Virus record (IMG/VR): IMGVR_UViG_3300032053_000007
From: a virus
Lineage: Duplodnaviria > Heunggongvirae > Uroviricota > Caudoviricetes
Direction: 5' to 3' (one strand)
DNA length: 64,000 bases
The notes below the pieces were generated by a model. It did not search any database. It saw nothing but the letters and a program-made list of their open reading frames with translations, and was not told the origin of the DNA. Made by a program: the position numbers and the translations under genes. Shown one piece after another: positions 20,565 through 64,000 of this stretch. Numbering within the stretch: position 1 is the first letter of the stretch; each line of letters opens with the position of its first letter.

Positions 20565-20978
20565 GCATATACCAACTTTCTCTGGGATAGTCCCCTACCC
20601 CTAGCTCCCCTAGACGTTCAAAACTCCCTGAAAAAAAGACGTTTTCAGTTATTTTCTTTTCTCGAATCCTTAGTAAATCTAAATCGAAATGCTCAGGAAA
20701 TAGGAAATAAAAATAATACCAAAATAACAATCATAACAGAAATCACAAAGTTCGCCGACCAAAATCAAATTTTCGCCTGCGCGCCGCCTATGTGTGGGTA
20801 TGTGGTTTCAAAAAGTGTGACCGATGGTTTTTTCCTAAAGGTTTTTCTGCGTTACCCTTTTCCGTGTTTCCGTCTGGGTCACTTTCGAGGTTACGGTTAG
20901 TGTAACTTTCTGTGTCATTGAAAGTTCAACTCTTCCTTATATAATACGAGTTGCACCATATAAACCTTTCGGTAGTTA

Positions 20979-20994
20979 TTAATCAACTGATTAA
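20979..20994. promoter_or_regulatory. palindromic site TTAATCAACTGATTAA
   Basis: Perfect inverted repeat. Confidence 0.5.
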
Positions 20995-21310
20995 AAGTTT
21001 GGGGCATGGAGCCGAGGGGGTGGAAAAAAGCCATCTGACCCCCGAACTGAATCGAACTCGGCAATACGAGCAAATTTCGGGGCGATTTGGCTCCCGCCCT
21101 TTCCCACCGAGAAAATTTCCCATAGGGTGAGTTTCGAACTGAGTCGAATTTCCGAAAACGAGCAAATTTCGAGGCAGATAATTTTTACAGGTCTCGCAAA
21201 TGACCATCACTTTTTTGCTGGTTGGGGATGTTTGTATGGAGAGAATGGCTTTCGAAATTTTTCGAAGTGCCAAAAAAGCTCCCAACCCTGCTGGTCATGG
21301 AAACCGAATG

Positions 21311-21326
21311 TTTAATCAACTGATTA
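21311..21326. promoter_or_regulatory. palindromic site TTAATCAACTGATTAA
   Basis: Perfect inverted repeat. Confidence 0.5.
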
Positions 21327-21392
21327 AAATAGTTCCTTTTATGACCTTCGGCATGGAGAAGTCCATGCAAACCAGCGATACTCATAGGGTTT

Positions 21393-21430
21393 TGAGCATG
21401 GGAGTTCTTACTAAACCTTTATATAGGGGA
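21393..21430 (+). promoter_or_regulatory. conserved promoter module driving array 1b
   Basis: TTGAGCATGGGAGTTCTTACTAAACC-TTTATATA-GGGG. Confidence 0.5.
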
Positions 21431-21459
21431 AAGCTATATCTCTAGGTAGTGACCGATTA

Positions 21460-21681
21460 ATGGGAAAAGTTAGAGATACAATGAAGCAGATAGGAATCAG
21501 GAACAGACCGAAAACCAATCTCGATAATGCTCAATGTCTCATTCAATGGGTTGCAAAGAAACACCCAAAAGTCTTAACTGAATATCTTGACTCCGAATTT
21601 TTCAAGATTCTAACGAGAACAAACCAATACGTTAGCGTCATGGAAGCAATGCACTTTCTTGATACAGGGAAGGATGAATAA
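21460..21681 (+). CDS. hypothetical protein (73 aa)
   Basis: Track ORF. Confidence 0.45.
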   Translation: MGKVRDTMKQIGIRNRPKTNLDNAQCLIQWVAKKHPKVLTEYLDSEFFKILTRTNQYVSVMEAMHFLDTGKDE

Positions 21682-22337
21682 TGATTGAGGAAAAGAGAAA
21701 GAAAATTATAGTTACAATGGAACGGTTGCAAGACCTTCACCATTTAGCTATTCGACACCCGTTTCGTGTGAGTAGAAAAGGTACAACAGATGAATATTAT
21801 GACGTTCTTGATGAACTCGGTGAAGTTTTTCTAGCGTTAGTAAAGAAGTCTTTCGAGAACTCGGACATACCTTATCCGTGGTATCCGACAGGTAGATGGA
21901 TTTGGTCACACCAATATTGGTCATGCCTTCTTTCTCTCAGAGGGGAGATTGACGCTCAAACACCCGAATACATGGAAACTGTCGAACATTACCTAAATAC
22001 AATTCATCAATTCATGGAAAGAGAAAAACTCGAATCTTTCTATATGCACTCTGGTTATTCAACTTATGACAAGAAACAGCATGAAGAAAATCCCATGCGA
22101 AGTATGTTGTATGTCTATTATCCGAAAAGTAAAAGATGGGATTTGACAAAGTTCTGGGCTGAACGGGAATTGGAATATTGGAAGAAAGAACTAGCCGATG
22201 ATTTGGAACAAGTCAGGAAAGCAAAAAAAGATAAGGGACAATTCGTAAAAGTAAACGTCAACTATTATGAACGAAACACATATTACGATAGAAGAAGAAT
22301 AAAGGAATTGAAGGAGATAATAAATGGTGAAGCATAG
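21681..22337 (+). CDS. hypothetical protein (218 aa)
   Basis: Track ORF; TAATG overlap. Confidence 0.5.
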   Translation: MIEEKRKKIIVTMERLQDLHHLAIRHPFRVSRKGTTDEYYDVLDELGEVFLALVKKSFENSDIPYPWYPTGRWIWSHQYWSCLLSLRGEIDAQTPEYMETVEHYLNTIHQFMEREKLESFYMHSGYSTYDKKQHEENPMRSMLYVYYPKSKRWDLTKFWAERELEYWKKELADDLEQVRKAKKDKGQFVKVNVNYYERNTYYDRRRIKELKEIINGEA

Positions 22338-22427
22338 ATTCATTCCGCGTCCTTTCATTGAGGACGATGAACGCCCGACTAGACCGATGCCTCACGGGAA
22401 TCCATTCGACTTAGGAGAACTTGATTA

Positions 22428-22661
22428 ATGCCTAAGAAATTCTACGCGCGTTGTGGTTTGTGCAAGAAAAACTTTGCAACAAAGAGAGGCGTTGATACTC
22501 ATTTTAAAAGTGAAGAACATCTCAGACGACTTGCAAGATGGTATGAACTTTGTACGGAAGGTAAAGAAAAAGGATTCACTTATATTTTAGGAAACATGGA
22601 AGGAAGTGCAAAGGAAGTTCTTGCAGAAGAGGAACGTCCAGAAGTTGTTAGCTTTGACTAA
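22428..22661 (+). CDS. C2H2-like Zn-finger protein (...VVSFD)
   Basis: CGLCKKNF...HFKSEEH. Confidence 0.5.
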   Translation: MPKKFYARCGLCKKNFATKRGVDTHFKSEEHLRRLARWYELCTEGKEKGFTYILGNMEGSAKEVLAEEERPEVVSFD

Positions 22662-22893
22662 AAGAAACTGTGAGAAATGTGGACGAGTTTTCACGGTGAC
22701 AGAAGATAAACTAAAATATCCTCATTCTATAGACGCTATTCTTTGTGGTTCTTGTCTAAGAAAATGGCTAGAGTTTTTTGCTGACCATAATACATTTTTT
22801 GTTGCTAAATATCCTAAGAAAATAAACCCAACTTGGGAAGTATTTAAGGGGAAAATTGCAGACTATACTAGAGAGAAGGTTGTGTTCACTTGA
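22654..22893 (+). CDS. Zn-ribbon protein (...KVVFT)
   Basis: TTG start (track ORF 22606-22893); CEKCG...CGSC. Confidence 0.45.
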   Translation: MTKRNCEKCGRVFTVTEDKLKYPHSIDAILCGSCLRKWLEFFADHNTFFVAKYPKKINPTWEVFKGKIADYTREKVVFT

Positions 22894-23078
22894 CGACTTG
22901 GCAAATTGTTAAGTGTGACGTTTGCGGACGGTCTTATGAACAATACGGGGACGCTCACGATATTGGTGAACAAAACTTCTGCTGTGAACATTGCCTCTGG
23001 ACAGCAGTTAGTAATAGTGGAGAACCACAACCTAGACATACTTGCATAGAGGTAAAGGAAAAGGTGAACTTTACTTGA
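22890..23078 (+). CDS. Zn-ribbon protein (...KVNFT)
   Basis: CDVCG...CCEHC. Confidence 0.5.
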   Translation: MTTWQIVKCDVCGRSYEQYGDAHDIGEQNFCCEHCLWTAVSNSGEPQPRHTCIEVKEKVNFT

Positions 23079-26429: not shown

Positions 26430-26431
26430 TC

Positions 26432-27243: not shown

Positions 27244-27477
27244 ATGTTCGGATGGGGAAAGAAAGATAAATGCGATAGTTGTCCAACAGCGAAAATTTTA
27301 GAGGACGCAATGAGATTAGAGAGCGAAACGATTCGTACTTACCGCGACAGAATGGAAACACTTACGAATTATCTTCACCATTTCGAATTACGATACTTAG
27401 ACTTGAAAGAGGAAAACGAAGGTTTAAGAAAAGAGTTAAAGAAGTTGACGGGAAAAGAAAAGGTTCAATTCACTTGA
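27244..27477 (+). CDS. coiled-coil small protein (...EKVQFT)
   Basis: Junction motif outside the arrays. Confidence 0.5.
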   Translation: MFGWGKKDKCDSCPTAKILEDAMRLESETIRTYRDRMETLTNYLHHFELRYLDLKEENEGLRKELKKLTGKEKVQFT

Positions 27478-27487
27478 GTTGATTGAA

Positions 27488-32537: not shown

Positions 32538-33218
32538 ATGAAAAAAAGAAATTTGATAATAATCGCGCTTTTGATTGCGTTAGTGATACCAATAGTGATA
32601 GTTCCAGCATTTGCTTCTGACGACAATGATAAGCCAAATTGCAATGACGGTGACGATGGCAACTCTTGTAACAACAAGACCAAAATAATCTACGTGGACA
32701 GAATTGTTTACGTCAACCAAACGGTTGAAGTTCCTGTTTACGTGGACAGAATAGTGTACGTTGACAGAGTTGTTGAGAAAATCGTTTACAAAGACAGAAT
32801 AGTGGAAAAGACTGTTTACATTGACAGAATAGTTGAAAAGATTGTCTATGTTGACAAAGTTGTTGAAACAGTCGTTTACGTTGAAGTGCCAATAGAGGTC
32901 ATCAAAGAAGTCATTAAGGAAGTGCCTGTCGAAGTCATCAAGGAAGTCGAAATAATCAAATACTGCAACAACACGGTCTATATCGAAGTGCCAAAAGAAG
33001 TCATCAAGTACATCGAGAAAGTCCTTTACGTGAACAGAGTTGTTTACGTTGACAAGCCATTCTACGTCTATATCACCGACAACAAGAAAGACTGTAACCC
33101 ATGTTGGCTCTTGATAATCATACTGACTTTCATACTAGGACTGATAATTGGGGCATTGCTCAACAATCGAAAGTGTGTTTGCGTCAAAGAAACCAAAAAC
33201 AAAAATACCAAACAATAG
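32538..33218 (+). CDS. secreted/membrane-anchored tandem-repeat protein
   Basis: Signal/TM at N-terminus, about 10-11-aa repeats (DRIVYVDRVVEK...) ×12, C-terminal TM. Confidence 0.55.
   Translation: MKKRNLIIIALLIALVIPIVIVPAFASDDNDKPNCNDGDDGNSCNNKTKIIYVDRIVYVNQTVEVPVYVDRIVYVDRVVEKIVYKDRIVEKTVYIDRIVEKIVYVDKVVETVVYVEVPIEVIKEVIKEVPVEVIKEVEIIKYCNNTVYIEVPKEVIKYIEKVLYVNRVVYVDKPFYVYITDNKKDCNPCWLLIIILTFILGLIIGALLNNRKCVCVKETKNKNTKQ
32690..33080 (+). repeat. roughly 30-33-nt coding tandem repeats inside 32538-33218
   Basis: GACAGAATAGTKTACGTTGACAGARTTGTTGAGAAAATCGTTTAC reiterated. Confidence 0.6.
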
Positions 33219-40233: not shown

Positions 40234-40373
40234 CGGAAATATACTGCGCTGGAAAAATAATTTACTGCGATGTCGGGGAGATAAATCATTATGACGATTT
40301 TTGTCAAAAGAGTTGCAGACAACGTTCGATTTGTGAAGTGAGAAAACAAAAAGAAGAGGTTCAATTCACTTGA
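40230..40373 (+). CDS. 47-aa Cys mini-protein (...EEVQFT)
   Basis: ATGA and TTGA overlaps. Confidence 0.4.
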   Translation: MTEIYCAGKIIYCDVGEINHYDDFCQKSCRQRSICEVRKQKEEVQFT

Positions 40374-40567
40374 AAGAAATGACGTGCCAAGTTTGCGGAA
40401 AAAAGTTCTTCTGTAATTGTGACGAAGAATGTTCCCCAGACGCTACATTATGCTATTGTAAAGAATGTTCAATCAAAAAATGGGGAACAAAATTTACTGA
40501 AGATATAGGGTCACTTGAATTGTGCTATGGGGGAATACCCGAAAAAGAGAAGGTGTTATTCACTTGA
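40370..40567 (+). CDS. Zn-ribbon protein, CxxCxxxFxC family (...KVLFT)
   Basis: CQVCGKKFFCNCDEEC...CYCKEC. Confidence 0.55.
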   Translation: MKEMTCQVCGKKFFCNCDEECSPDATLCYCKECSIKKWGTKFTEDIGSLELCYGGIPEKEKVLFT

Positions 40568-41487: not shown

Positions 41488-41624
41488 CAGAAGAGAAAAT
41501 GATAGAATGTTTTAGATGTGGAAAACTTTGGTTCTGCAAACCCTTCGCTGGAAGTCGTGCACTTTTTTGTCCCGAATGTCTAAAACTATTGTATAAACAA
41601 AAAGAGAAAGTTCGGTTCGATTAG
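41484..41624 (+). CDS. Zn-ribbon mini-protein (46 aa, ...EKVRFD, TAG)
   Basis: CFRCGK...CPEC; last gene of array 2. Confidence 0.4.
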   Translation: MTEEKMIECFRCGKLWFCKPFAGSRALFCPECLKLLYKQKEKVRFD

Positions 41625-41729
41625 TCCCCTACCCCTAGCTACATTTGACAGGTAAATAGACTAGGGAAAAAGACGTTCTGGATGCTAGGGCGAAGCCAAT
41701 GGGAACTGAAGCCTGAAGTCGGTGCTTTT

Positions 41730-41745
41730 TTAATCAGTTGATTAA
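41730..41745. promoter_or_regulatory. palindromic site TTAATCAGTTGATTAA
   Basis: Perfect inverted repeat. Confidence 0.5.
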
Positions 41746-42164
41746 AAGTCTGGGGAATACGTTGGGGGCTGGCAGAGGGCTTCACCATAAACCGAAATCT
41801 AATTGGGAAGAAAAAACGCCTATGTGCGTTATGTGACACTCAGGATTCTACTAAAAATTTAATTTTCGAGGGGACGGAAAGTTACACCGAAAGTGTGACC
41901 TAGCCTTCGTCCTCTAGTGCTTCCTCAAGTTCTGACGGGTCGGGACAACCAACGGGTCGCCTGAAAGTTTTAACTACTTTTGCAAGAACAATTAAACCTA
42001 TTATGAAACCCAGAGTATCAAACGGAAACATATTTGTGCCTCTTTGTGAATACTACAACACGGTAGCTTATAAATCTTTCCCTAAAAACGCCATGCTCAA
42101 TTTCCAGCACAGCTTTCACAATGGTCGCTTTTGCCAAACGGGACGCGGTGCGAGGCGCATTTAA

Positions 42165-42180
42165 TTAATCAGGTGATTAA
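42165..42180. promoter_or_regulatory. palindromic site TTAATCAGGTGATTAA
   Basis: Perfect inverted repeat. Confidence 0.5.
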
Positions 42181-42229
42181 CTGCTTCACGCCCCTTCACG
42201 CCGAGGCACGATGCGAACTGTTGAGCTTA

Positions 42230-42245
42230 TTTAATCAAATGATTA
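42230..42245. promoter_or_regulatory. palindromic site TTAATCAAATGATTAA
   Basis: Arms perfect; spacer AA instead of CANNTG. Confidence 0.45.
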
Positions 42246-42341
42246 ATTTCAAAACTCGAAGCCTTTACATTCGAAGTCTGCGCGTTGCCGTTTTCCAAGA
42301 CTGATTTTCCAAAACGAACCCGAACGAAACCCAGATTCCAT

Positions 42342-42520
42342 AGGACTGATGGTCTTTTTAACATCGTTTCCATTGGTCGAAAAGCATTATTTGAGCCTCT
42401 TCGAACAAAAGAAGGACACTCGTTCAATATCGTTTATATATGTTCGAAATTATTGAACGATTTGCCCCGAAGAGAACGCTCAGGGGATGAAATTGAGAGT
42501 CGGGCATTATCCACAGTCCT
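42342..42520 (+). ncRNA. candidate structured RNA/repeat element, copy 1 (179 nt)
   Basis: Starts AGGACTGATGG, ends CGGGCATTATCCACAGTCCT; complementary termini; second copy at 56348-56526. Confidence 0.3.
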
Positions 42521-42629
42521 TTGGGGGACACTACTTCGGGGCACAGTTAAACTCTAGGTGTAATAAAAGTTTCGACCATGCCTTTGACCATCAACATTTA
42601 AGTCACTCAGAGTGCAACCTTTCACTTTT

Positions 42630-42645
42630 TTAAACAGTTGATTAA
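42630..42645. promoter_or_regulatory. palindromic site TTAAACAGTTGATTAA
   Basis: One mismatch; 7 nt upstream of the promoter module. Confidence 0.45.
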
Positions 42646-42651
42646 CTAAAA

Positions 42652-42690
42652 CGAGCATGGTCGTTCTGGGGAAACCTTTATAAGCTACGC
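42652..42690 (+). promoter_or_regulatory. conserved promoter module
   Basis: CGAGCATGGTCGTTCTGGGGAAACC-TTTATAAG-CTACGCTGGCATCTATA. Confidence 0.55.
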
Positions 42691-42714: not shown

Positions 42715-44442
42715 ATGACAAAGCAGAAACAAGCAAAGACGAACAACTTCTCTAAGATACTTGACGAGATGAGGAATCTTGCCATAGCAATTACGAAGGA
42801 CAAACGGATTCGTATCAAGTATATTCCAGAACAACCAACTTCTGCTTTCAATATGGAAAACTTTGAGATTTCTTTGAGTTTACAGAGTTATCCCGATTTC
42901 GTGAAAACATCGCCCCGTCTATTCCGAAAAATCCTAGACGGTGACATGGTTCACGAGTGCGGTCATCTGATTCTAACAAAACCGAATTGGGAATTTTTCA
43001 ACAATTGGACAACAAAAATCAAACGACAGAGAGGATTTTACAAGCTGGCTCACGAAGTTTGCAACATAGTTGAAGATAAGCGCGTGAATCATTTCATAAT
43101 TCTCAGATACAGGTTTGATGTCGGCAAGAGGCTACTTTTGGCGAATTTGATACTAAAAGACATGATAGACAACACAATTGAAAAGCCACAAATAGCCATG
43201 TCAACCATCTTACCGAAGGGCGAAAACTTAGGCGAAAACGAAATTCCAAACATGACAATTCAAGCTGGACAACAAGACGGGGTTTACATGGTTGCAATTT
43301 TGTGCAATGAAGGTCTATATGAGGCTAAATGCACAGAGTTATGGAACAAACTAAGCCCAGATGCTAGAAAGGACTGTGAAACAGCCCTTAAAGTGCTAGA
43401 GGGGACGAAATATCAACGTGTCAAACTCGACATAATAAGGTCTTGCCAAACGATTTATGAATTGGTAGCTAAACACTTGAACGCTGACTATACGACAAAG
43501 GAATATGTCGTTTCTAGAAGAGGGGGCAACGTAAAGGGCAAAATATCGGACAGACTTAGGCAATTACTAGAAAAAGAGGAAGAGCAAGAAAAGGCAGAAG
43601 AGGACAAGAAGAAACACCTAGAAGATTTGCAGAAAGGTTCGGGTGCTGGCGAAGGCACAGGCGAAGAGATTCCAGCCCCAGACCCAGATTTTGAGGCGTA
43701 TTCGAAACTTCTGGACGAATGCAAGCCTGAAATTTCCGAGCTATTGAATCAACTAAAGAAGAAAATGAAACCGAGAGTTCAACGGGACATTTTCCAGAAA
43801 CGCGGAAAAATGATGAGTCCAATTGTTCCACGCATCTACACAAACAGCTTTAGGGGAACCGTTCGCAATGTGTATCTGCGTACAACAACAAAATTTGAGA
43901 AGGAACAAGTCGCAATTCAATTTTGGTTCGATTTCTCAGGGTCAGTTAGTCGAATAGAGGCTGAAAAGATAACCACTATACTGAATGAGGTCTTTGGACA
44001 TTACGTTGACGATTACGGGTTCAGTATTGGGTGCTTTGGGGCAGATACCCAGAAAGTAAAGACTTTCTTTGAAACCTTCGAAAACACACGGGCAAGAATT
44101 GGAGCTATTTCGGTGAATGCTGGCGGTACTGAGGTTTCCGTTGGATTAGAGGCAAGCCTGAGAATGTTCAATACGATTAAAGGCGAACGCCGAAAGATTC
44201 TGGTCATTGCGTCCGATTTCTGCTTCTGTGGTGATGAAGAAACGAAAGCAGAGGAATTAATCGACCAATATGCGAAAGCTGGAATTGAATGTATCTTCAT
44301 AGGTTTCTGTGACTGTGAGAATGTAGAAACCTTCGCAAGCAAAGTGAAAAACTTGAAGTGCTCACGAACACGGATAAACCAAATATCCGAATTACCTCAG
44401 AGATTCCTAAACGTGTATCTAAACGTAGAAACCCAGAAGTGA
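42715..44442 (+). CDS. HExxH metallopeptidase-motif / von Willebrand factor A (vWA) fusion protein (575 aa)
   Basis: N-terminal MVHECGHLIL; acidic linker; C-terminal vWA MIDAS DFSGSVS...GGTEVS...IASDF. Confidence 0.6.
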   Translation: MTKQKQAKTNNFSKILDEMRNLAIAITKDKRIRIKYIPEQPTSAFNMENFEISLSLQSYPDFVKTSPRLFRKILDGDMVHECGHLILTKPNWEFFNNWTTKIKRQRGFYKLAHEVCNIVEDKRVNHFIILRYRFDVGKRLLLANLILKDMIDNTIEKPQIAMSTILPKGENLGENEIPNMTIQAGQQDGVYMVAILCNEGLYEAKCTELWNKLSPDARKDCETALKVLEGTKYQRVKLDIIRSCQTIYELVAKHLNADYTTKEYVVSRRGGNVKGKISDRLRQLLEKEEEQEKAEEDKKKHLEDLQKGSGAGEGTGEEIPAPDPDFEAYSKLLDECKPEISELLNQLKKKMKPRVQRDIFQKRGKMMSPIVPRIYTNSFRGTVRNVYLRTTTKFEKEQVAIQFWFDFSGSVSRIEAEKITTILNEVFGHYVDDYGFSIGCFGADTQKVKTFFETFENTRARIGAISVNAGGTEVSVGLEASLRMFNTIKGERRKILVIASDFCFCGDEETKAEELIDQYAKAGIECIFIGFCDCENVETFASKVKNLKCSRTRINQISELPQRFLNVYLNVETQK

Positions 44443-46390: not shown

Positions 46391-46606
46391 ATGACATATA
46401 TCGGGCAAGACGAAGAATTAACGATAGAGCGTGGTTGTTTTAATTGCGCTCGATTCAAAAAATGTCATCTTATTGAGGGACAAAGAAGAAATGGAATTAA
46501 TTTTATGGAGATTTTGAAGGACGGTGCGGAAGATTATCGTTATGGTTGTTGTTGCACAACTTATCTAGCAGAATCCGAAGCTAGAGAACAGGTGCAATTT
46601 ACTTGA
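46391..46606 (+). CDS. Cys-rich protein (...EQVQFT); paralog of 23075
   Basis: GCFNC...GCCCTTY. Confidence 0.5.
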   Translation: MTYIGQDEELTIERGCFNCARFKKCHLIEGQRRNGINFMEILKDGAEDYRYGCCCTTYLAESEAREQVQFT

Positions 46607-46890
46607 TTCAAAATTGTCCGTCTTGCGGTTCAATTCGCTTGACTCGAAAATGTCCGTCTTGTGGTTCTATTCTGGAAGAACAAAGTGGAACACTTTTTTT
46701 CACAGATAGTTTTTCACAACACGATAGACAAAAAATAAGGGAAACTCACTTTTTGCATTATTTTTGCGAAGTTTGTCGTAAAAATGATTTGCCTTTTGAC
46801 TTTTTATTTTTCAAAGGAAAACAATTCATTTATGATAAGGGCAGATGGAACCTCTTAGCTCCTGAGAGAGAATGTGTTCAATTCACCTAA
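46603..46890 (+). CDS. Zn-ribbon protein (...CVQFT, TAA)
   Basis: CPSCGS...CPSCGS duplicated knuckle. Confidence 0.5.
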   Translation: MIQNCPSCGSIRLTRKCPSCGSILEEQSGTLFFTDSFSQHDRQKIRETHFLHYFCEVCRKNDLPFDFLFFKGKQFIYDKGRWNLLAPERECVQFT

Positions 46891-46937: not shown

Positions 46938-47300
46938 GTGTTTCAAATGAAATGTCAAGACTGTGAAAAAGAAACAAATACAAAATCTCAAAGATGTCCT
47001 GAATGCCAAAAGATATATCACCAAAAATGGCTAGAAGAATTAAAACTCTGGGCGATTCAAAAGTTAGGCGATAAGTGTTTTCATTGCGATAAACATTTTG
47101 ATTCTTGTGTTTATGATTTTCACCATGAAGGAAACGATACATGGCTTCGTTGCAATGAACAACAAAAAAATGCGAATCGAAGAGTAAAAGAATTGGTTCG
47201 TTGGAGAAGGGCAGAGAAAATTCCAGAGGACGTTCGATTAGTCTGCGCGAATTGTCACAGAATTATTAGTCATAAATCGTTTAATCACCTGATTAAGTAA
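46938..47300 (+). CDS. HNH endonuclease
   Basis: CFHC...DFHHEGND...N...LVCANCHRII. Confidence 0.55.
   Translation: MFQMKCQDCEKETNTKSQRCPECQKIYHQKWLEELKLWAIQKLGDKCFHCDKHFDSCVYDFHHEGNDTWLRCNEQQKNANRRVKELVRWRRAEKIPEDVRLVCANCHRIISHKSFNHLIK
47281..47296. promoter_or_regulatory. palindromic site TTAATCACCTGATTAA
   Basis: Overlaps the 3' end of the HNH gene; 7 nt upstream of the promoter module. Confidence 0.5.
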
Positions 47301-51948: not shown

Positions 51949-52275
51949 ATGATTCAGATGCGATTAAAGTCTATTGGAAATTTTGACGTTGAAATAAAAG
52001 AGAAAACTGAATCACAAAAAAAGAGACAACGAGAACAAATAAAAATGTGGGGAAAAAAACACCCAGAGCGAACTAAAATGAAGAATGCAAAACGGCGAGA
52101 ATTAGGGTTTGACCCTTTTAATGGGAGATTTATTGGCTCTGTTGCTCATCATATAGATTTTGAATGTGTTATCTATATTCCCAGAGAACTTCATATTTCT
52201 ATTCATCATTGCGTTTGGACAGGTCAGGGTATGGCAGAAATAAATGATAAAGTTTTCGAATGGCTTACCACATAA
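51949..52275 (+). CDS. possible HNH-like nuclease (low confidence)
   Basis: AHHIDFEC...N...HISIHHC. Confidence 0.3.
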   Translation: MIQMRLKSIGNFDVEIKEKTESQKKRQREQIKMWGKKHPERTKMKNAKRRELGFDPFNGRFIGSVAHHIDFECVIYIPRELHISIHHCVWTGQGMAEINDKVFEWLTT

Positions 52276-55031: not shown

Positions 55032-55068
55032 CGAGCATGGTCTTTCTACCACAACCTTTATATACCCG
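55032..55068 (+). promoter_or_regulatory. conserved promoter module opening an ORF-free island
   Basis: CGAGCATGGTCTTTCTACCACAACC-TTTATATA. Confidence 0.45.
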
Positions 55069-55336
55069 TTTGACATACTACTCTATCAAGGGCGAAGGGA
55101 TATTGTTCCATTTTTTCACCGTCCTTTCTCGCGCTTTCCCTTCGCCCGTTCTACTCATTCCTTCTAACCTCTCTAACCCTCTACAAACTTAGACGATTTC
55201 ACTAACACTTTTTGTTAAAGACCTCAGAACCCCCGACCCAGAGAGCCTTTACACTTTTTGATTTCACCACGTCAACCGAAACTGACCCAAGTTCTGCCCA
55301 AGCCGTCTTGAGCCTCTCTCACGAAACCCAGATTTT

Positions 55337-55352
55337 TAATCAACTGATTAAC
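55337..55352. promoter_or_regulatory. palindromic site TTAATCAACTGATTAA
   Basis: Perfect inverted repeat. Confidence 0.5.
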
Positions 55353-55672
55353 GAATCGTAGCTCGTAACGAGGCTGTGCACCCTTTACCCCGACCTCTAA
55401 CCATATAACACAAATTGTTAAGCAAATTCCCGAACCCCAGAGAACCCACGTCCGACCCCTAACCCAGACCCTCTAACGACCTCTAATCACTAACCCCCCC
55501 AAGAGAGCCATATACCCCCAAAAGTGGAGTCCATGCTTAAAAGAAATGCTCGATAAAAGATACTGATGACCTTTACATACGTAAAGGAAAGGGTTGTCAT
55601 ACGTAAAGGGTCTATGGAGTGGAATGTTGGCATACGACAACGGCGTGATTGACATAGTGCTGTAGCTCTATT

Positions 55673-55688
55673 TTAAACAGGTGATTAA
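55673..55688. promoter_or_regulatory. palindromic site TTAAACAGGTGATTAA
   Basis: One mismatch. Confidence 0.4.
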
Positions 55689-55813
55689 CGACCCCATTAT
55701 AAAGAAGTCCCCCCCCTCTAGCTCCCCTGAATGCCAAAACAAGCCTAGAAAAAAGACGTTTTGGCAAACGGTGACTTTATTATCCGAAAGGCTCGCGGAA
55801 CTGTGGAGAATTT

Positions 55814-55829
55814 TTAATCAGGTGATTAA
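55814..55829. promoter_or_regulatory. palindromic site TTAATCAGGTGATTAA
   Basis: Perfect inverted repeat. Confidence 0.5.
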
Positions 55830-56347
55830 GCAGGGCGAACCGACAGGTAGAAGGGACGGCGTGAACTCTCTGACCAGAAAATAATTGGAACCAAAAAAAC
55901 GCCTATGTGCGCTTATGTGATATTCTCAGTTGCATTCTATGGACAATTTCCTGTTAACCGAGGCGTTACCCCAAAAGTTGCACTTTTTGTTACACTAGAA
56001 GTTGTGCTAGACCAAAACGTTTATATACCCCCTATTTAAGCGTATCGCCGATAGCCTTATATAGTAGCTATTTAAACCTATCGGTTGCTTATATATGTGC
56101 AAACTTAGCAAAATTCGAACCATAAAGTACAACTCTCTATTATCACGTCCTTCGAACCATATACCGCAACTCTTATATAGATGCCATACTTACTTATAAA
56201 CGTTTGCCCAGAACGACCATGCTCGATTTAGAGGCTGATTCAGGGCGGAAACAACTAACGGAGCACACTTACAGATTCGAACTCGCGCCGATGACTAGCT
56301 CTGAGACTGATTAACTAAAACGAACGTCATCGAACGGTGAATTCATT

Positions 56348-56526
56348 AGGACTGATGACAATTTTGACGTTCTAACATTACCCCGAACTCCACGATTTAG
56401 CCTTATTCGACTAAACGGGGCGTACTCGCTCAATATCGTTGAGCAAATATAAAGGGAATTGAGCGTATTGCTCCGAACGACCCGCTCACAGGTTGATTTT
56501 AGAAAACGGGCATTATCCACAGTCCT
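56348..56526 (+). ncRNA. candidate structured RNA/repeat element, copy 2 (179 nt)
   Basis: AGGACTGATGA...CTCGCTCAATATCGTT...CGGGCATTATCCACAGTCCT; same length and termini as 42342-42520. Confidence 0.3.
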
Positions 56527-56783
56527 ACCCGCCATTGCTGGCGCGAACGGGCTTCGAACTTGGTTGTACTTTGAGTTACATTGAATATACATCATGCGTT
56601 ACTATGTAATATACGCTTAACGCGAACAACTCCAACTCTCTCAAACATACGTTCTCAGCGCACTATATATACGTTTGCTTTTTCCTGTACGACACATCTA
56701 CAAGTCAATGGTCGAACTGTTGGTTTAAGCTACACTTTAATGGAAACGTTTATAAGAGAGGGTGCGAACGTTATTCTAAGGAC

Positions 56784-57287
56784 GTGAAACACTTGAACGA
56801 TAAGGACGAATTGACACGACTTGAAAACTTAGCGCAAAAACTAGGTTTTACCGTGATATATAATTTAACCCTTAGCTGGAATCATTCGAAGGTTTCCTTT
56901 TATCCATGTCGAAGAATCCTTATCGGAACTAAGAACTATTCACCAAATTCAAATATCGGTTATGGAACCATACCTGATAAGGTTAAAGCGTTAATTCTGA
57001 ATCACGAGCTAGGGCATATTGTCGTATATGAAACGCTTTACCCTAACATGGATTTAGCTGATTTTTGTCTCTCAAATGATTCAAAATTCTTGGTACAACA
57101 AGAGATGTACGCATGGAAAACCGCAATAAATGAATCGCTCGATGATAATTCTGACCCTCTAGTGTTGGAATTGATACAAGAATCGATAAACCAATACATT
57201 TATTGTGAGTATATCGGAACATGCACAATAGAATCTCAGCAAGAACTACAGCAAAAAATAATTACTAAGTTTACACGTACAAAATAG
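56784..57287 (+). CDS. HExxH motif protein (167 aa)
   Basis: GTG start; LILNHELGHIVVYE. Confidence 0.5.
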   Translation: MKHLNDKDELTRLENLAQKLGFTVIYNLTLSWNHSKVSFYPCRRILIGTKNYSPNSNIGYGTIPDKVKALILNHELGHIVVYETLYPNMDLADFCLSNDSKFLVQQEMYAWKTAINESLDDNSDPLVLELIQESINQYIYCEYIGTCTIESQQELQQKIITKFTRTK

Positions 57288-58909: not shown

Positions 58910-59170
58910 ATGGCAAGAATCTTTAAAGTGAATGAAACCACAGAAATACTCTGTGAATTTGTGAGCACAAGAAGCGGTTTTAGACATGATGCAAGGCTGT
59001 TCAAAAATGGCAATGAATACGAAAAGGCTAAAGTATGCTACGTAAACAGAACATGGGAGAAATTTGACTTCGAAACCGTCATACATAAACTGCTAGAAAA
59101 GACGGACGCTTTGACCGAAACAGAAAAAGAGCAATTCAGAACCGAATTAAACAACAAATACGGCTATTAA
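58910..59170 (+). CDS. hypothetical protein (86 aa)
   Basis: Variant promoter GTTTATAAGACTCGATGCTATTATACTCTTAAGGACGTGG. Confidence 0.5.
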   Translation: MARIFKVNETTEILCEFVSTRSGFRHDARLFKNGNEYEKAKVCYVNRTWEKFDFETVIHKLLEKTDALTETEKEQFRTELNNKYGY

Positions 59171-60020
59171 CCCCCCTACCCCCTTTTTGTTTTTTTGGTG
59201 ATAATCATGGAACAAAAAAGACGAATTCGGACACAACCGAAATTAAAAGGAAATCTCGGCAAACTGTTTAATAAGCGATTTTTTGAACTGCTCGAACAGA
59301 ACCGATAAAACTCCCTCTTTTTTTGACTTGCAAACTTAGCGGAAAAACAAATTTTAACTTAATATATACCTATGTGCGTTACACCCCAGACAGTTACCCC
59401 CAGAAGTTCAACTTTCGGTTGACCACAACCTTTATATAGGTCGCCATACCGAAACGTTTATATACTACCCTATACCGAAACCCTTATATACTACCTATTT
59501 GACTTCATAGTTCCTGTTCTAACCATACAACACCGTCACTTATAAACCTTCCTATTTAACTGTTCAACAATAATACAGTTAGTACATTGTGTTCGATTCA
59601 TCACAACGATGAGAGCGAAAATTTCGTTCGAGAAAATATACATGAAAACACCATAGTACGAGTAACCACTTCGAAAACACACATATGGGGCAATAAAAAG
59701 ACCATTGTGGTGAATCGTAGCCAATTTCGAAGCATGGGAAAAGCATGGTAAATTCTCGAATCGTGACTTCGATTCACCACGCATAGGAACAAAAGTTCAC
59801 CGTGAGTTCAACTGTGGGTGACATTCAATTCAAGTGATGCGTGTCCATGTAATATACGCTTAACGCGAGGCTCTGGTTATGAACGTGGGCACGGGACTAT
59901 TTAAACGTTTGCTTTTAACTGTTTAACGTGACTACACATGACCATATAAACTGTATATTTGACCTACACTTTAAAGCCAACCTTTAAATACTACGTTCGA
60001 CACGTTACCTAATGGTGAAC
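59171..60020. repeat. ORF-free repeat island
   Basis: CCCCCTACCCCC, ACCTATGTGCGTTACAC, AGTTCAACTTTCGGTTGACC, tandem TATA-like boxes 59425-59500, CCATGTAATATACGCTTAACGCGA. Confidence 0.45.
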
Positions 60021-60024
60021 AAGG

Positions 60025-60498
60025 ATGCCAATAAAAACCGTGGAATTTGTCTTATATCTCTCGGACGTTGTAAACTTAGGCTTTTCAGAATTGACGATTC
60101 AAAAAATTAAGCAGAGATTGATAGACCACTTTTCATTTGGTACGAATTTACCAGAGAATTACGTTGTAATTTATCCTCATATTGTAGCGTTTGAGATGCA
60201 CAACGAGGATAAAATTGTTCGCAAATTTAACTATACAGTTCTGCATGAATTGATACACGGATTACTTGAAGAGAGTGAACTTAATACAGAAGAGATGTGC
60301 CACGCTTGGAGTATGATACTAACCGATGACCGTGAATCAAATGTAAGCGGTCAAGGACACCACTATTATCAAATGTTAAAAGGACGAACAGAAATCGTTG
60401 TAAACGAAGAACCCAAATTCGAGGCGGAAAAGCTAAACGCGGCGCGGAATTTGTCCAGAATGCGATTAGTGAAACACCATGAGCTAACAGGACTTTAA
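60025..60498 (+). CDS. HExxH motif protein (157 aa)
   Basis: VLHELIHGLLEE. Confidence 0.5.
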   Translation: MPIKTVEFVLYLSDVVNLGFSELTIQKIKQRLIDHFSFGTNLPENYVVIYPHIVAFEMHNEDKIVRKFNYTVLHELIHGLLEESELNTEEMCHAWSMILTDDRESNVSGQGHHYYQMLKGRTEIVVNEEPKFEAEKLNAARNLSRMRLVKHHELTGL

Positions 60499-61166: not shown

Positions 61167-61168
61167 AA

Positions 61169-61288
61169 ATGCCAAAAACTTGTTTAGGAAATTTGACTCG
61201 TGACTGTTCTGGGACATGTCCAGATTATCAGGAATGCCTTAAAAAATACATGGACATGGAAATAAGAACGTCAGAACATAACAGAGAT
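61169..61288 (+). CDS. 39-aa Cys small protein
   Basis: Hand-translated. Confidence 0.25.
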
Positions 61289-61522
61289 TAATGCAACCGA
61301 GGCGGTTCACGGGAAGTTTAACTTTAAGTTGGTTTCTAATCATGGTATCCGTGTCCATGTAATATCCCGTTTTTTCTCGCGCTGAGGTTGTCGCCCTCAA
61401 TAGTAACGTGTGCATCGAGGTATATAAACGTTTGCTTTCAAGTGTAGAACAGGACTACAGTTTAGCTACACAACAACGTTTATAAGTCACGGTGATATAA
61501 TATAGTTAAGGACGTGTGTGAC

Positions 61523-62035
61523 ATGGACGCATTAAAAAAAGCTCTTGCGGTTAAGCGTAAAATGATTCACCCAGAACGACAAAATTTTTGTCTAAACAAA
61601 CTTAGTGAATTCTCGAAACGCTTAATATTAGGAATTCAAGACACACCTTATATTTTGCTTCCTGACCAAAAACAAACCTATTCTATCGATTTGAACCTTA
61701 AGCAATGCCGAAAAGCTAAACGGGACGGTTTACAGAACGTAATTCGTGCATCATGGTCAAATCTGCCTTTTAGAAATAAAAGCGAATTTGATATTATTTA
61801 TGCTGATAATTTCGGCGATAGAAAAGACATTAACGAAATAGCGCACGAAGTAAATCGACTGAAAACCAAAAAGCTCATCGTTTTAGGTGCGGCTAGAGCA
61901 TTCAGGAAGCCAGCGAAGCGTAAATGGAAATATCTGCTCAAAACGAGGTTCCCTAAGCTAAAGCTCCAAGAATTACGGAAGGACGGCGGTTATTGTTCCA
62001 CGGTGCAATGGACAGCAATACTGTATAAGCGTTGA
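61523..62035 (+). CDS. hypothetical basic protein (about 170 aa)
   Basis: Track ORF 61514-62035. Confidence 0.5.
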   Translation: MDALKKALAVKRKMIHPERQNFCLNKLSEFSKRLILGIQDTPYILLPDQKQTYSIDLNLKQCRKAKRDGLQNVIRASWSNLPFRNKSEFDIIYADNFGDRKDINEIAHEVNRLKTKKLIVLGAARAFRKPAKRKWKYLLKTRFPKLKLQELRKDGGYCSTVQWTAILYKR

Positions 62036-62091
62036 ACACTTAAATAGGAACGTTTATATAGCTCGCCGCATACGTTACTATTGGTGAAAAA

Positions 62092-62223
62092 ATGACCAAC
62101 AACAAAAAGCCCAAAAAGTTGAGCACGGAAGACTTTAACGCGATATTTGACGCGATAAGGAACACGGAAAAACACCCAAAAATAAAATTCTCATGTCGAA
62201 CGTTCAGAGGAGTCAGGGACTAA
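62092..62223 (+). CDS. 43-aa small basic protein
   Basis: Hand-translated. Confidence 0.3.
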   Translation: MTNNKKPKKLSTEDFNAIFDAIRNTEKHPKIKFSCRTFRGVRD

Positions 62224-62310
62224 AACCCTTTTTCTTTTGTAGTTCTGTTGTACACTTGAATCGAAAGGTATATAAGGAACGGTGTACACATACTATTGAG
62301 GGAAAAACTC

Positions 62311-62538
62311 ATGGCAAGGACAATAAGGGTTAACGTGGTTGTGTGCTACAGAAATAGGCTTACAAGAATGTTTAAAAACGTTGAACTTGACATAACACAC
62401 ATAAACGAACTTAATAACCGTAACATGTCAAGAGCGTTCGAAGAACAATACCCTAAACTCGTGGCAAAAATCCCAACGTGGACGGACAACCGAGGGTTTA
62501 CTTTTAGGGCTAACTTCGAATGTGAACCGCTCTACTAA
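62311..62538 (+). CDS. hypothetical protein (about 75 aa)
   Basis: Track ORF 62296-62538. Confidence 0.45.
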   Translation: MARTIRVNVVVCYRNRLTRMFKNVELDITHINELNNRNMSRAFEEQYPKLVAKIPTWTDNRGFTFRANFECEPLY

Positions 62539-62758
62539 AACCCCAATTTTTTGTGTATTTCTGTTCTACAGTTAAAAGCGAAGGTTTAAATAGGTCGGCG
62601 ATATACTATATTTGTCGAGCGCGGGACTCGGCGGCGCGAGCTATCGGATATTACATGGGCACGGACGGCAAGAATCCACCGAAACGTTTATAAGCAACCG
62701 CCTCACCAGAACCTTTATAAGTCTCTGTGCTATACTATTCTATAAGGACTGTGAAAAC

Positions 62759-63052
62759 ATGATAGACATGAATAAGGTCAGTATGGCGTTAACTCTAACA
62801 AACGCGAAGTTAAACGCTCTCTCAACAGAAAAATACAACACACTAAAAGCCTCTGTTGACGTACCACTTGAACCGCTGGAAATAGTGAAATATCAGAATC
62901 TAAAAGCTATCGCCCAAATAGAACAGAAAATTTCACTCGAAGTTGCACTCTGGATATACACGGCAATTGAGCATTGGGCAAAAACGACACTAGGAGAAAA
63001 AATTCTGATAACTCAAATGATAGCTGGCTGGGCTGGGATTCTTCGCAAATAA
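62759..63052 (+). CDS. hypothetical protein (97 aa)
   Basis: ATG after the promoter (track ORF 62612-63052 over-extended). Confidence 0.45.
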   Translation: MIDMNKVSMALTLTNAKLNALSTEKYNTLKASVDVPLEPLEIVKYQNLKAIAQIEQKISLEVALWIYTAIEHWAKTTLGEKILITQMIAGWAGILRK

Positions 63053-63141
63053 ACCCTTTCTTTTCTGTATTATTGTTCTACAGTCAAAAGCAAACGTTTA
63101 AATACCTCTCTGAACATATACTATTATTGGTGAAAAGCGCA

Positions 63142-63288
63142 ATGAGAAACCGAAAAAGAGAATTTAGTTATGAAGAGCAACCTAGACAAATAGCTCTAGC
63201 ATTTGAACGTGAGCTATTGATAATCTGCGCTCAAGTAGAACAAGCCGAAAAAATCGAAGCACAAAAAAGACGAGGTTATCAAGTATGA
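63142..63288 (+). CDS. 48-aa small protein
   Basis: ATG after TATA at 63095 (track ORF 62974-63288). Confidence 0.35.
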   Translation: MRNRKREFSYEEQPRQIALAFERELLIICAQVEQAEKIEAQKRRGYQV

Positions 63289-63377
63289 GCGAATTACTAA
63301 TAGCTCTCTTAGGCATCTTTTCAGCGTGGTTTATCTCTGACCAACTGATACAGAACGTAGGCAAAAAGAAAAAGTAA
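63285..63377 (+). CDS. 30-aa membrane mini-protein
   Basis: ATGA overlap. Confidence 0.25.
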   Translation: MSELLIALLGIFSAWFISDQLIQNVGKKKK

Positions 63378-63389
63378 GAGGGCTTCAAT

Positions 63390-64000
63390 ACAGCACGGGC
63401 TAATTGCCCGTGTTCCTAGTGATTAGCCTCTAGGTAGAATATAGCTAACTGATGAACCTTATAGGCTATGGTTTATAGGGTCAAGGTTGTTGCACTACAC
63501 TTGCAAGCTAGAGGCTATCACACAATAATACTTTTAGTACAACTAATTAGTTACACTTTTAGTTATACCAAATCCTTATATACTAGCCTGTTTCACTTGT
63601 GCACAACACTACTATATAAACCTTTCACAACCCTTATATACTAGAGCCTCACTCACGAGCACAGCACTACTATATAAGGCTTACGCAACCCTTATATACT
63701 ACACCCTACCCCCTACCCCTATTTAAACTTATCGCAACGCTTATATACTAGACCCGCCCCTCTACCCCCTTATAAAGCTATCGGACAATTCTCAGTTGCA
63801 CTTTCGGTTGCACCCACAAGAGCACTAACAATTATCACAAAAAGTACAACTTTCAGTTACATCAACAAGTCCCCCGCCAGTTCCACCCACAGGCGAATCA
63901 GAGGTAATATAGTCCCCCCCTAAACACAGGAATTCGATTTTGGTGGATGGGACTAAGCTGGGTAAATTGCCCTATGTTTCAACTGGGTCATGATGTTTCA
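63390..64000. repeat. ORF-free repeat island at the window end (tandem CCTTATATACTA boxes)
   Basis: At least 6 TATA-like boxes 63560-63760, CCCTACCCCCTACCCC, GTTGCACTTTCGGTTGCAC. Confidence 0.5.

Follow-up and report, generated by a model that had tools for sequence, protein, structure and literature searches.

Gene-poor islands of a large archaeal-type virus as probable conserved control regions at operon boundaries

Five gene-poor islands that share a repeat vocabulary lie in a 64,000-nucleotide stretch of viral DNA (IMG/VR record IMGVR_UViG_3300032053_000007; the whole stretch is referred to as the window), at 20.57 to 21.39, 41.63 to 42.65, 55.07 to 56.78, 59.17 to 60.02, and 63.39 to 64.0 kb (islands 1 to 5). 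What are these islands for? A previous sequence-only reading proposed replication origins, genome termini, or integration regions, with promoter arrays for abundant non-coding transcripts as a fallback. None of the tests that we ran supports the origin, terminal, or integration proposal, and the fallback fits better. With a probability that we put at roughly 55%, the islands are conserved control regions at the operon boundaries of a large archaeal-type virus with genes mostly on one strand. To our knowledge, almost nothing is known about the organization of transcription in large viruses of non-extremophilic archaea.

An exact-protein look-up placed the window within ENA contig ERZ27247916:k141_6238898 (151,756 bp); by coordinate offset, window position 1 is roughly position 14,168 of that record, and the five islands map to about 34.7 to 78.2 kb of the contig. 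The GC content of the window is about 0.37 to 0.38, credible open reading frames (ORFs) lie on the plus strand with few exceptions, and the promoters are of the archaeal type, with a B recognition element (BRE) and a TATA box. Few genes are recognizable: an RNA ligase, a glycosyltransferase, a KaiC/DnaB-like ATPase, an SPFH protein, and a pair of VWA and MoxR-type AAA proteins, with a dCMP deaminase and a ribonucleotide reductase encoded shortly past the window end. The VWA protein has 77 homologues (31 to 95% identity), many of them on contigs of 60 to 150 kb; three of these contigs have viral entries in IMG/VR, and one lies within a metagenome-assembled genome (MAG) of an "uncultured archaeon." A profile of 15 homologues retrieved three viral contigs of 59 to 112 kb from IMG/VR, a single-sequence protein scan of the same database gave no match, and a metagenome scan gave seven loci. 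The GenBank phage collection gave no match by DNA or by protein, and we found no description of this virus group or its repeats in the literature. Based on the VWA homologues on long contigs, the IMG/VR viral entries, and the archaeal MAG, the source is an uncultured family of large archaeal-type viruses of freshwater sediment and peat. The island layout is repeated in relatives (given locus numbers with the prefix L) that have 61 to 85% protein identity to the window, for example, 85% for L013, about 73% for L028, and about 71% for L026; the VWA protein of the peat virus L015/L021 is 68% identical. At the nucleotide level, the islands are 66 to 81% identical to those of relatives and the adjoining genes 70 to 86%. 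The sequence-only reading had named repeats not conserved in relatives as a result that would speak against it; both the order and the sequence of the islands are conserved.

The description of the islands as ORF-free holds for 54.4 to 56.8, 59.15 to 60.0, and 63.29 to 64.5 kb, where three independent gene-calling sources are empty, but not for island 2, which carries a called minus-strand gene of 43 amino acids (41900 to 42031). Island 5 is clipped by the window end and runs on to about 64.5 kb. Other ORFs of at least 30 amino acids within the gene-poor islands look spurious. Such frames, including a 100-residue minus-strand ORF at 20983 to 21285 and an open frame across an insert of island 2 (module B, see below), might be taken as traces of decayed genes in a neutral spacer. 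We regard decay as very unlikely, given that the order and sequence of the islands are conserved in relatives at the level of coding DNA and that no reading frame is open in all copies of module B. Between L026 and L028, a minus-strand ORF over an array of TATA boxes in island 3 (MVRILLSL...GYINVLV) shows about 12 amino-acid-changing versus 3 silent codon differences, counted by hand, and its stop codon is not kept; we rejected a coding reading of this array.

Comparison of the window with itself yielded three abundant motif classes: a promoter that we refer to as class 1, a 16-bp palindrome, and a gene-junction motif. The class-1 promoter reads TGAGCATGG-N3-TTCT-N8-10-TTTATA, and its matrix has 31 matches (960 to 55069) at a threshold of 14 bits, compared to a best shuffled score of 0.6 bits. 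All but two of these matches are on the plus strand, ahead of operons (29/31); the only minus-strand matches are in island 2 (42099 to 42062) and island 3 (56225 to 56188). In class-1 promoters such as those at 960 to 997 and 42652 to 42689, the upstream element TGAGCATGG-N3-TTCT stands about 20 nt before the TATA box, GGACG follows right behind the box, and an AT-rich element lies about 13 nt downstream. Relatives with VWA identity below about 50% have lost the upstream element and kept the palindrome. A BRE/TATA core matrix matches the window 70 times, 15 times on the minus strand, and the islands hold 11 of these 15 minus-strand matches in 8% of the window. At 11 bits or more, 23 matches fall within the islands (12 plus, 11 minus), with a purine-rich BRE directly upstream of a TTTATATA-type box. 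A scan for bacterial sigma-70 promoters was uninformative (15 matches versus 20.8 expected). This minus-strand enrichment, the use of CTTATATACTA as an apparent gene TATA box in L028, and the resolution of the shared motifs into predicted promoters, terminators, and operators are what favor the fallback of promoter arrays for non-coding transcripts.

The palindrome, TTAATCARYTGATTAA, occurs 24 times in the window versus 0.3 expected. Nine copies are in islands 1 to 3 and none in islands 4 and 5, such that the islands are "dense in the palindromic operator" only in the first three cases. Outside the islands, most palindromes are close to a class-1 promoter, either some 20 nt or tens of base pairs upstream of it or about 50 nt into it, and some promoters are bracketed by palindromes on both sides (47281/47353 and 52306/52371). 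This placement is operator-like, as would be expected for a repressor operator.

The motifs listed in the sequence-only reading have their cores at the places given, but the long versions are more degenerate than written and are not exact repeats. Exact-motif searches tolerating up to three mismatches under-counted the repeats because copies differ by insertions and deletions, and core-motif searches then recovered further copies. For example, the exact 20-mer CGCCTATGTGCGTTATGTGA has a single occurrence within three mismatches, and its core CCTATGTG(C/T)G is found at 20787, 41819, 55902, and 59369 in copies that differ by such indels (seven window matches versus 1.3 in shuffles, four of the seven in islands). 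Good copies of GTTGCACTTTCGGTTGCAC are present at 55977 and 63795 and weaker ones at 20899, 59405, 63549, and 63843, but the supposed copy at 41879 is a true hairpin (GTTACAC-CGAAA-GTGTGAC) rather than the same direct repeat. The CCCCTACCCC-type C-tracts were borne out, with eight matches versus 0.8 expected (positions include 20592, 41626, 59173, and 63710); AAAAAGACGTTYT is restricted to 20633, 41667, and 55750 with a variant at 59216, and AAAAGACG is at 20634, 41668, 55751, and 59216. The suggested dot plot, run as a blastn self-comparison, revealed homologous modules beyond short words: module A (20588 to 20645, 41622 to 41860, and 55706 to 55949), module B (42269 to 42520 and 56275 to 56526), and module C (56563 to 56788, 59806 to 60019, and 61305 to 61459).

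Read from left to right, the parts of islands 1 to 4 suggest a common plan. First would come the terminator of the upstream plus-strand operon, with a C-tract hairpin and an A-run/T-run that gives a T-run on either strand. Second would be a small unit transcribed leftward from a BRE/TATA promoter of its own, with CACAUAGGCG plus a U-run as its conserved 3' end; these units appear to be paralogous to each other, the island 2 unit encoding a 43-residue membrane peptide and the others having no coding signal. Third, in islands 1 to 3, copies of TTAATCARYTGATTAA are the predicted repressor operators; fourth would be optional ORF-less inserts bounded by TTAATCARYTGATTAA, module B included; and fifth would be the promoter of the next plus-strand operon. 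Islands 3 to 5 would open a gene block with its own types of promoter and ribosome site (TAAGGACGTG), and the region would be expanded there, the reiterated opposed BRE/TATA boxes with GTTGCAC/AGTTSAAC repeats being orphan bidirectional promoters together with sites for a block-specific regulator. Such orphan promoters would give rise to short transcripts, non-coding or antisense, and promoters that face each other would interfere. Under this plan, the shared vocabulary has two sources, the transcription signals of the genome itself and the paralogy of the leftward units. Island 5 follows the plan with the same parts in another arrangement: its terminator-like module lies right of the array, and no CACATAGGCG end was found. 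The coordinates of the parts are collected in Table 1.

At the left of these islands, the piece formed by the C-tract and AAAAAGACGTTTT directly follows the stop codon of the upstream plus-strand gene in islands 2 and 4 and comes about 20 nt after it in island 1. It holds a small hairpin (CCCTAG..CTAGGG) with A-runs and T-runs behind it, which in AAAAAGACGTTTT read as T-runs on either strand. We infer that this piece terminates the upstream operon and could stop transcripts arriving from both sides. For the leftward units, the clearest case is island 2, where a class-1 promoter, the 43-residue ORF, and a terminator follow each other on the minus strand. The L013 counterpart of the peptide (MFPFDTISFILALIVLAKVARTFRHP...) is conserved despite many nucleotide differences, the promoter is conserved there as well, and L039 has a minus-strand gene of 40 amino acids at the same place. 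A conserved peptide with a promoter before it and a terminator after it indicates that island 2 has a real small leftward gene with its own predicted promoter and terminator. The 3' end of the leftward units corresponds to the CGCCTATGTG motif of the sequence-only reading, which is CACATAGGCG plus a T-run when read backwards. CGCCTATGTGCG read on the minus strand is CGCACATAGGCG followed by T6 to T7, and a terminator scan catches the island 3 copy of CGCACATAGGCG as a hairpin with a T-run. Islands 1, 3, and 4 share the frame of a minus-strand BRE/TATA element (20956, 56192, and 59538) followed by the CACATAGG 3' end, and their leftward units have no conserved ORF. The 3' segments of about 70 nt from islands 1 to 3 and from six relatives align mutually, and island 4 shares the CACATAGG core only. 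The order of parts recurs in L037 and L038 for island 1 and in L013 and L039 for island 2.

The full order of island 3 is found in L026: a plus-strand promoter, the C-rich stretch, palindromes, the terminator module, a palindrome, the leftward terminator, repeats, the box array, a repeat, the minus-strand class-1 promoter, module B, module C, and the gene. L028 shows the same order but lacks module B, the partial locus L032 has it with module B, and the peat virus L015/L021 has it with no recognizable module B. The sequence-only reading had named ordinary divergent intergenic regions without replication signals as an outcome that would refute it, and this is largely what the islands are, except that they are elaborate and conserved.

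Could the islands instead be genome ends, packaging sites, or attachment (att) sites for integration? Several contigs break off within island 3 (the starts of L006 and L007, at 55517 and 55528, and the end of L013 are at or beside its poly-C run, and the start of L004 is further left, at 55115), and the islands contain C-rich telomere-like tracts (CCCCTA repeated). However, all five islands are internal to k141_6238898, and the equivalent of island 3 is internal to the 86-kb contig of a relative. Moreover, several of the breaks are at or beside a poly-C run, also in a different genome (L013): a C8 to C9 homopolymer (window 55494 to 55502; L013 20160 to 20175) lies where, or close to where, several independently assembled contigs end. 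Poly-C runs are a known weak point of both assembly and sequencing, and such a weak point is most simply what the breaks reflect. No tRNA was found by tRNA scans of the window and L003, and no integrase domain was present among the neighboring proteins scanned. We consider ends or att sites barely credible.

The tandem TATA arrays of islands 3 to 5 are real. Tandem Repeats Finder reports periods of 58 and 49 (63574 to 63783) and of 26 (59446 to 59495), and the proposed box spacing of 30 to 40 bp is roughly right, since the CTTATATACTA copies are 49 to 58 bp apart with opposite-facing boxes interleaved. They do not resemble an array of clustered regularly interspaced short palindromic repeats (CRISPR), as units of 26 to 58 bp occur in about two copies (74 to 91% match) and what repeats within them is an 11-nt TATA-like box. 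Successive boxes alternate in orientation, most with a purine-rich BRE on their own upstream side; for example, AAAACG-TTTATATA is followed after 5 nt by the reverse of GAAAGG-CTTAAATA. GTTGCAC/GTTACAC repeats at a 12-bp phase bracket the arrays. Across five genomes, the TATA octamers are invariant columns, and the spacers vary in both sequence and length. RNA hairpins were rejected as the cause of the paired boxes: each half keeps a TATA-like sequence, not complementarity to its partner, and the constraint hence looks to be on DNA boxes. In L028, two ordinary genes have CTTATATACTA as their TATA box; an inverted partner box precedes it by about 21 nt, and a TAAGGACGTG-type ribosome site follows. 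The TAAGGACGTG motif is confined to 56.1 to 61.5 kb in the window, and a GTTSAAC-type matrix has 26 matches versus 2.4 in shuffles, 19 of them at 55.9 to 63.9 kb and some within genes. With both kinds of site concentrated in this way, islands 3 to 5 probably stand at the head of, or at breaks within, a separate regulon, and the arrays are best taken as repeated orphan bidirectional promoters of the CTTATATACTA class.

The same arrays are where a replication origin would have to be sought. The cores of islands 3 to 5 could be origins in which the GTTGCAC-type repeats bind a viral initiator, the TATA-like boxes melt, and a conserved promoter facing inward drives origin activation through transcription, as at lambda ori or ColE1. 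At least three phased direct repeats, as expected of iterons, are indeed present (GTTGCAC/GTTACAC/GTTGTGC at a 12-bp phase, 55977 to 56007), iteron-like repeat pairs lie at 59405, 63549, 63794, and 63843, direct repeats at this phase flank the boxes on both sides, relatives keep the repeat-box layout, all of those examined have a promoter that reads into the array, and part of island 5 is conserved beyond the needs of a promoter. We nevertheless find origins doubtful. The label "AT-rich" does not hold at island scale (GC of 0.385 to 0.435 for islands and 0.37 to 0.41 for arrays, window 0.38), and no AT-rich unwinding stretch stands out, with array minima at the 11th to 80th percentile of low-GC windows. 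The suggested GC-skew check showed negative skew only locally inside islands 3 to 5, positive again past 64 kb, with no global switch. The archaeal origin recognition box (ORB) motif GTTCCAGTGGAAAC is at chance level (five matches within three mismatches versus 5.7 expected, one of them in an island, at 63976). A Pfam scan of 20 proteins, including all neighbors at 56.8 to 63 kb, found no Orc1/Cdc6, initiator, or integrase domain, and most of the small ORFs were without any detectable domain; in particular, the genes adjoining islands 3 to 5 encode no ImmA-like, integrase, Rep, or Orc domain. Origins would not usually occur as three similar arrays in 8 kb, the array box is an ordinary gene TATA box in L028, and GTTSAAC-type repeats also occur within coding sequence at 57.4 to 58.6 kb.

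The inserts between palindromes raise the question of how the islands came by their content. Two segments differ in presence between the window and relatives, with breakpoints that fall exactly on palindrome copies. L013 has one palindrome and no module B where the window has the palindromes at 42231 and 42630 with module B (about 400 bp) between them, and L037 lacks the 317-bp insert of island 1. Such palindrome-bounded differences could result from insertion at the palindrome or from deletion between repeats. Of the five copies of module B, itself a candidate structured RNA, two are in the window, two in L032, and one in L026; L028 has none. Its closing helix, AGGACUG/CAGUCCU, is invariant in the five copies, and the alignment folds with a z-score of about -5 versus column shuffles on either strand, with a structure conservation index of 0.4. 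A conserved GTTCGTTTT on the minus strand hints that module B may be expressed from that strand. Together with the regular palindrome-to-palindrome spacings of 333, 337, 399, and 435 bp, these differences would also suit islands that are accretion zones of mobile ORF-less inserts entering and leaving at the 16-bp palindrome, their vocabulary stemming from repeated insertion and not regulation. Against this, deletion by recombination between nearby copies of an abundant repeat gives the same pattern, no integrase or transposase was found adjoining the islands, the inserts of islands 1 and 3 share no sequence, and the placement of the palindrome beside promoters genome-wide points to an operator role. 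We thus judge accretion unlikely. An equally unlikely variant would have structured-RNA cassettes such as module B traded at the palindrome in an integron-like manner or like miniature inverted-repeat transposable elements (MITEs), with the boxes acting as a platform that captures host TBP and TFB.

Island 5 holds a candidate new structured RNA with covariation (63425 to 63516). Its architecture consists of a 9-bp closing stem, a replaceable middle hairpin, and an invariant 3' hairpin (UUGCA-N7-UGCAA). Among three sequences from three genomes, three of the nine closing pairs are changed on both sides and stay paired, and 95% of cells are paired versus 21 to 45% with the partner column slid; with only three sequences, this support is modest. 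The middle hairpin needs G-U pairs on the plus strand; L032 has an unrelated UUCG hairpin in its place. The element is single-copy per genome, and a covariance model recovered no further copies in 298 kb of related DNA. Rfam 15 gave no match at the gathering score over the whole window and no meaningful match at an E value of up to 1 in L003 and islands 1 and 2, and exact scans of IMG/VR with the module B core and with the 3' hairpin of the island 5 element gave no match. Past the window end, an ORF-less element of about 150 nt stands behind its own TATA box (L003 14290 to 14470, approximately window 64,300 to 64,500), with an 11-bp closing stem (ACGGUAGCGGG/CCCGUUACCGU) and a tRNA T-arm-like GGGUCCGAAUCCC; neither ARAGORN nor Rfam recognizes it.

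Several points weigh against control regions at operon boundaries as the explanation of all five islands. Every promoter, terminator, and transcript in the plan is deduced from sequence. The array boxes do not match the complete gene-promoter geometry in either orientation, as boxes with a good BRE are without a properly spaced AT-rich proximal element and vice versa. The GTTGCAC repeats at a 12-bp phase beside A/T-rich boxes also resemble an iteron-type origin, the C-tracts have no explained role in the plan, and parts of island 5 are more conserved than a plain promoter would need (60 or more nucleotides identical to L025, and 96% identity to L028 over 81 nt of the RNA candidate in a genome of only about 73% protein identity). 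The fold signal of module B is present on either strand, and one of its hairpins is missing in two of the five copies. What is established are the positions, orientations, order, and enrichment of the motifs, their conservation in relatives, the conserved peptide, the insert polymorphism, and the covarying stem of one RNA candidate. Promoter firing, termination at T-runs, repressor binding at the palindrome, and roles for the transcripts are predictions from these patterns. G-quadruplexes formed by the C-tracts on the minus strand were considered and rejected, as the number of G-runs is inconsistent between islands.

Table 1. Features of the five islands (window coordinates; promoters, terminators, and units are predicted)
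Feature	Coordinates	Strand	Evidence and conservation
Island 1, terminator module of upstream plus-strand operon: C-tract GTCCCCTACCCCTAGC, then AAAAAGACGTTTT	20588..20645	+	sequence; paralogous to 41622-41677 and 55706-55762; conserved in L037, L038
Island 1, small leftward non-coding unit: GTTSAAC-type repeats, then CACATAGGCG 3' end	20785..20935	-	87% identical to L037; 3' segment aligns with islands 2 and 3 and relatives
Island 1, BRE/TATA promoter-like element GAAAGGTTTATATGG	20956..20970	-	19.6 bits, BRE/TATA matrix; same in L037, counterpart in L038
Island 1, two identical palindromes (20979-20994, 21312-21327) around 317-bp insert	20979..21327	.	L037 has one palindrome
Class-1 promoter of next plus-strand operon after island 1	21393..21430	+	matrix score 39.9
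Island 2, terminator module: C-tract hairpin CCCTAG..CTAGGG, then AAAAAGACGTTCT; palindrome 41730-41745	41622..41745	+	88% identical to L013
Island 2, 3' untranslated part of leftward unit: hairpin GTCACAC-TTTCG-GTGTAAC; terminator CACATAGGCG, then T6	41817..41897	-	
Island 2, gene for 43-residue membrane-type peptide MFPFDTLGFIIGLIVLAKVVKTFRRP...	41900..42031	-	called gene
Island 2, class-1 promoter, one of only two on this strand in the window	42062..42099	-	matrix score 34.8
Island 2, palindromes 42165-42180 and 42231-42246	42165..42246	.	both conserved in L013
Module B copy 1: ORF-less insert with closing helix, between palindromes 42231 and 42630	42261..42539	.	
Island 2, palindrome and class-1 promoter of VWA-MoxR operon	42630..42689	+	
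Island 3, class-1 promoter leading into ORF-less C-rich stretch	55032..55069	+	conserved in L026, L028
Island 3, C-rich, G-poor stretch: C8 run at ~55495, palindromes 55336 and 55673	55080..55690	+	
Island 3, terminator module (C-tract, AAAAAGACGTTTT) and palindrome 55814-55829	55706..55829	+	same order in L026, L028, L021
Island 3, leftward-unit terminator: hairpin AAGCGC-ACATAG-GCGTTT, then T-run	55897..55920	-	terminator scan; aligns across islands and relatives
Island 3, direct repeats GTTGCAC/GTTACAC/GTTGTGC, 12-bp phase	55928..56010	+	conserved in L026, L028, L032
Island 3, array of opposed BRE/TATA boxes (TTTATATA-N5-TATTTAA, CTTATATAG-N3-CTATTTAAA, others)	56014..56180	.	
Island 3, class-1 promoter reading into array	56188..56225	-	matrix score 41.2; same place in L026, L028, L021, L032
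Island 3, module B copy 2	56267..56545	.	
Module C copy 1, leader upstream of gene 56784: back-to-back promoter-like boxes (minus 56663, plus 56743), core ATGTAATATACGCTTAACGCGA, TAAGGACGTG ribosome-site motif	56561..56788	+	
Island 4, shortened terminator module: C-tract, AAAAAGACGAATT, CCTATGTGCG	59170..59390	+	
Island 4, repeat GTTCAAC-N5-GTTGACC; three plus-strand BRE/TATA boxes, 26-bp period; minus-strand box 59538	59393..59552	.	
Module C copy 2, upstream of gene 60025	59804..60024	+	
Module C copy 3	61314-61513		
Island 5, candidate 95-nt structured RNA	63425..63516	+	covarying 9-bp closing stem; fold z-score -2.9
Island 5, repeats (63549), four CTTATATACTA boxes interleaved with opposite boxes (63566-63783), repeats 63794 and 63843	63530..63862	.	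right half of island nearly identical in L025
Island 5, terminator-module-like: C-tracts and hairpin AGTCCC..GGGACT around GAATTCGATTTTGG	63865..63950	+	conserved in L025; fold no better than shuffles

Additional observations concern the genes around the islands. The third motif class of the window is a gene-junction motif of about 21 nt, GA(G/A)AAGGTG-N5-TT(C/T)AC(A/T)TGA, at 32 or more junctions (5997 to 51709; for example, 16809 to 16835, 27453 to 27479, and 40349 to 40375); this count is of the largest repeat family, and further overlapping families may add to it. The next ATG overlaps the TGA stop, with a GGTG ribosome site 9 to 10 nt upstream, and many small ORFs therefore end in ..EKVxFT*. 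The motif looks like a standardized junction for translational coupling, one that would give unrelated small proteins a common C-terminal peptide. The genes at 56784 to 57287, 60025 to 60498, and 61514 to 62035 each stand behind a module C leader, and their proteins are weakly similar (13 to 22% identity). Two of the three, of 167 and 157 amino acids, carry HExxH (HELGH and HELIHG), which Pfam does not assign. The proteins may be diverged metalloprotease-like paralogues, and none has a Pfam match. Near-identical strains (L004 to L006, locus positions of about 3800 to 6100) have an extra 2 kb or so just upstream of island 4 (window 58.9 to 59.2 kb), holding a minus-strand gene of 160 amino acids and a second copy of an 86-residue gene, so this region is structurally polymorphic within the population.

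Several homologues of the VWA protein (P0005, P0011, P0018 to P0020, and P0059; counterparts of window 42715 to 44442) are about 900 amino acids long. Intein and LAGLIDADG domains are present in P0005, P0020, and P0059, the window copy is without an intein, and in L015 a LAGLIDADG-type ORF follows the VWA gene. The small genes at 51949 to 52272, 46938 to 47300, and 15293 to 15679 have paralogues scattered in varied orientation in L013, L015, and L021, one of them on the minus strand shortly upstream of the L015 VWA gene, and appear to behave like mobile genes of the homing-endonuclease type (HNH type). Tandem repeats in or near coding sequence are found at 32750 to 32884 (period 30, 4.5 copies) and 46591 to 46672 (period 36, 2.3 copies).

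The window provides a readable grammar, with an extended promoter, a 16-bp operator in 24 copies, and a second promoter class that marks a separate gene block, along with paralogous small backward-facing units and at least one RNA candidate with covariation. This grammar is conserved throughout a family that counts 77 detectable relatives in metagenomes from sediment and peat, and it yields concrete predictions for transcript mapping in existing metatranscriptomes. A false lead is also removed, in that the islands are unfit as markers of origins or termini when finishing such genomes. Contig breaks at poly-C runs should not be read as genome ends, which is a trap when judging the completeness of these genomes.

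Comparisons with known systems help to place the islands. Phased direct repeats by A/T-containing boxes recall iteron origins (lambda ori, P1 oriR, and theta plasmids) and archaeal ORB-type oriC. Unlike those origins, however, no AT-rich unwinding stretch, ORB motif, adjacent initiator, or skew switch was found, and three copies lie within 8 kb. An abundant imperfect palindrome that borders segments present or absent between relatives recalls integron attC cassettes and bacterial repetitive extragenic palindromes (REP) or interspersed mosaic elements (BIME), but the island segments are without an ORF, no integrase is nearby, and the palindrome also stands beside promoters in an operator-like manner. 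Closer to promoters, repressor sites of F55 in the Sulfolobus virus SSV1 are tandem repeats that overlap the TATA/BRE of early promoters. The islands likewise have short repeats beside or over archaeal viral TATA boxes, as a temporal switch needs, although the sequences are unrelated, the host lineage is another, and no binding protein has been identified for the islands. Tandem promoters are also known from the phage T7 early region (A1 to A3) and, as multiple promoters, from upstream of Halobacterium rRNA operons. Like these, the arrays head a gene block and consist of tandem, regularly spaced promoter elements uninterrupted by ORFs; unlike these, the boxes alternate in orientation and have no clear downstream product, and at a spacing of 26 to 58 bp neighboring pre-initiation complexes would overlap. 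Lastly, temperate phages have promoters that stand back to back or face each other: PR and PRM of lambda are governed at the OR operators, and pR and pL of coliphage 186 face each other 62 bp apart. The islands differ from such switches in that their promoter elements are archaeal BRE/TATA rather than sigma-70, no repressor gene was identified, most units are non-coding, a box may be repeated up to four times, and there are five regions in 44 kb. As in the immunity and switch regions of temperate phages, however, non-coding DNA between operons combines palindromic operators, two-way promoters, and a small counter-directed unit, which makes the islands candidates for transcriptional interference.

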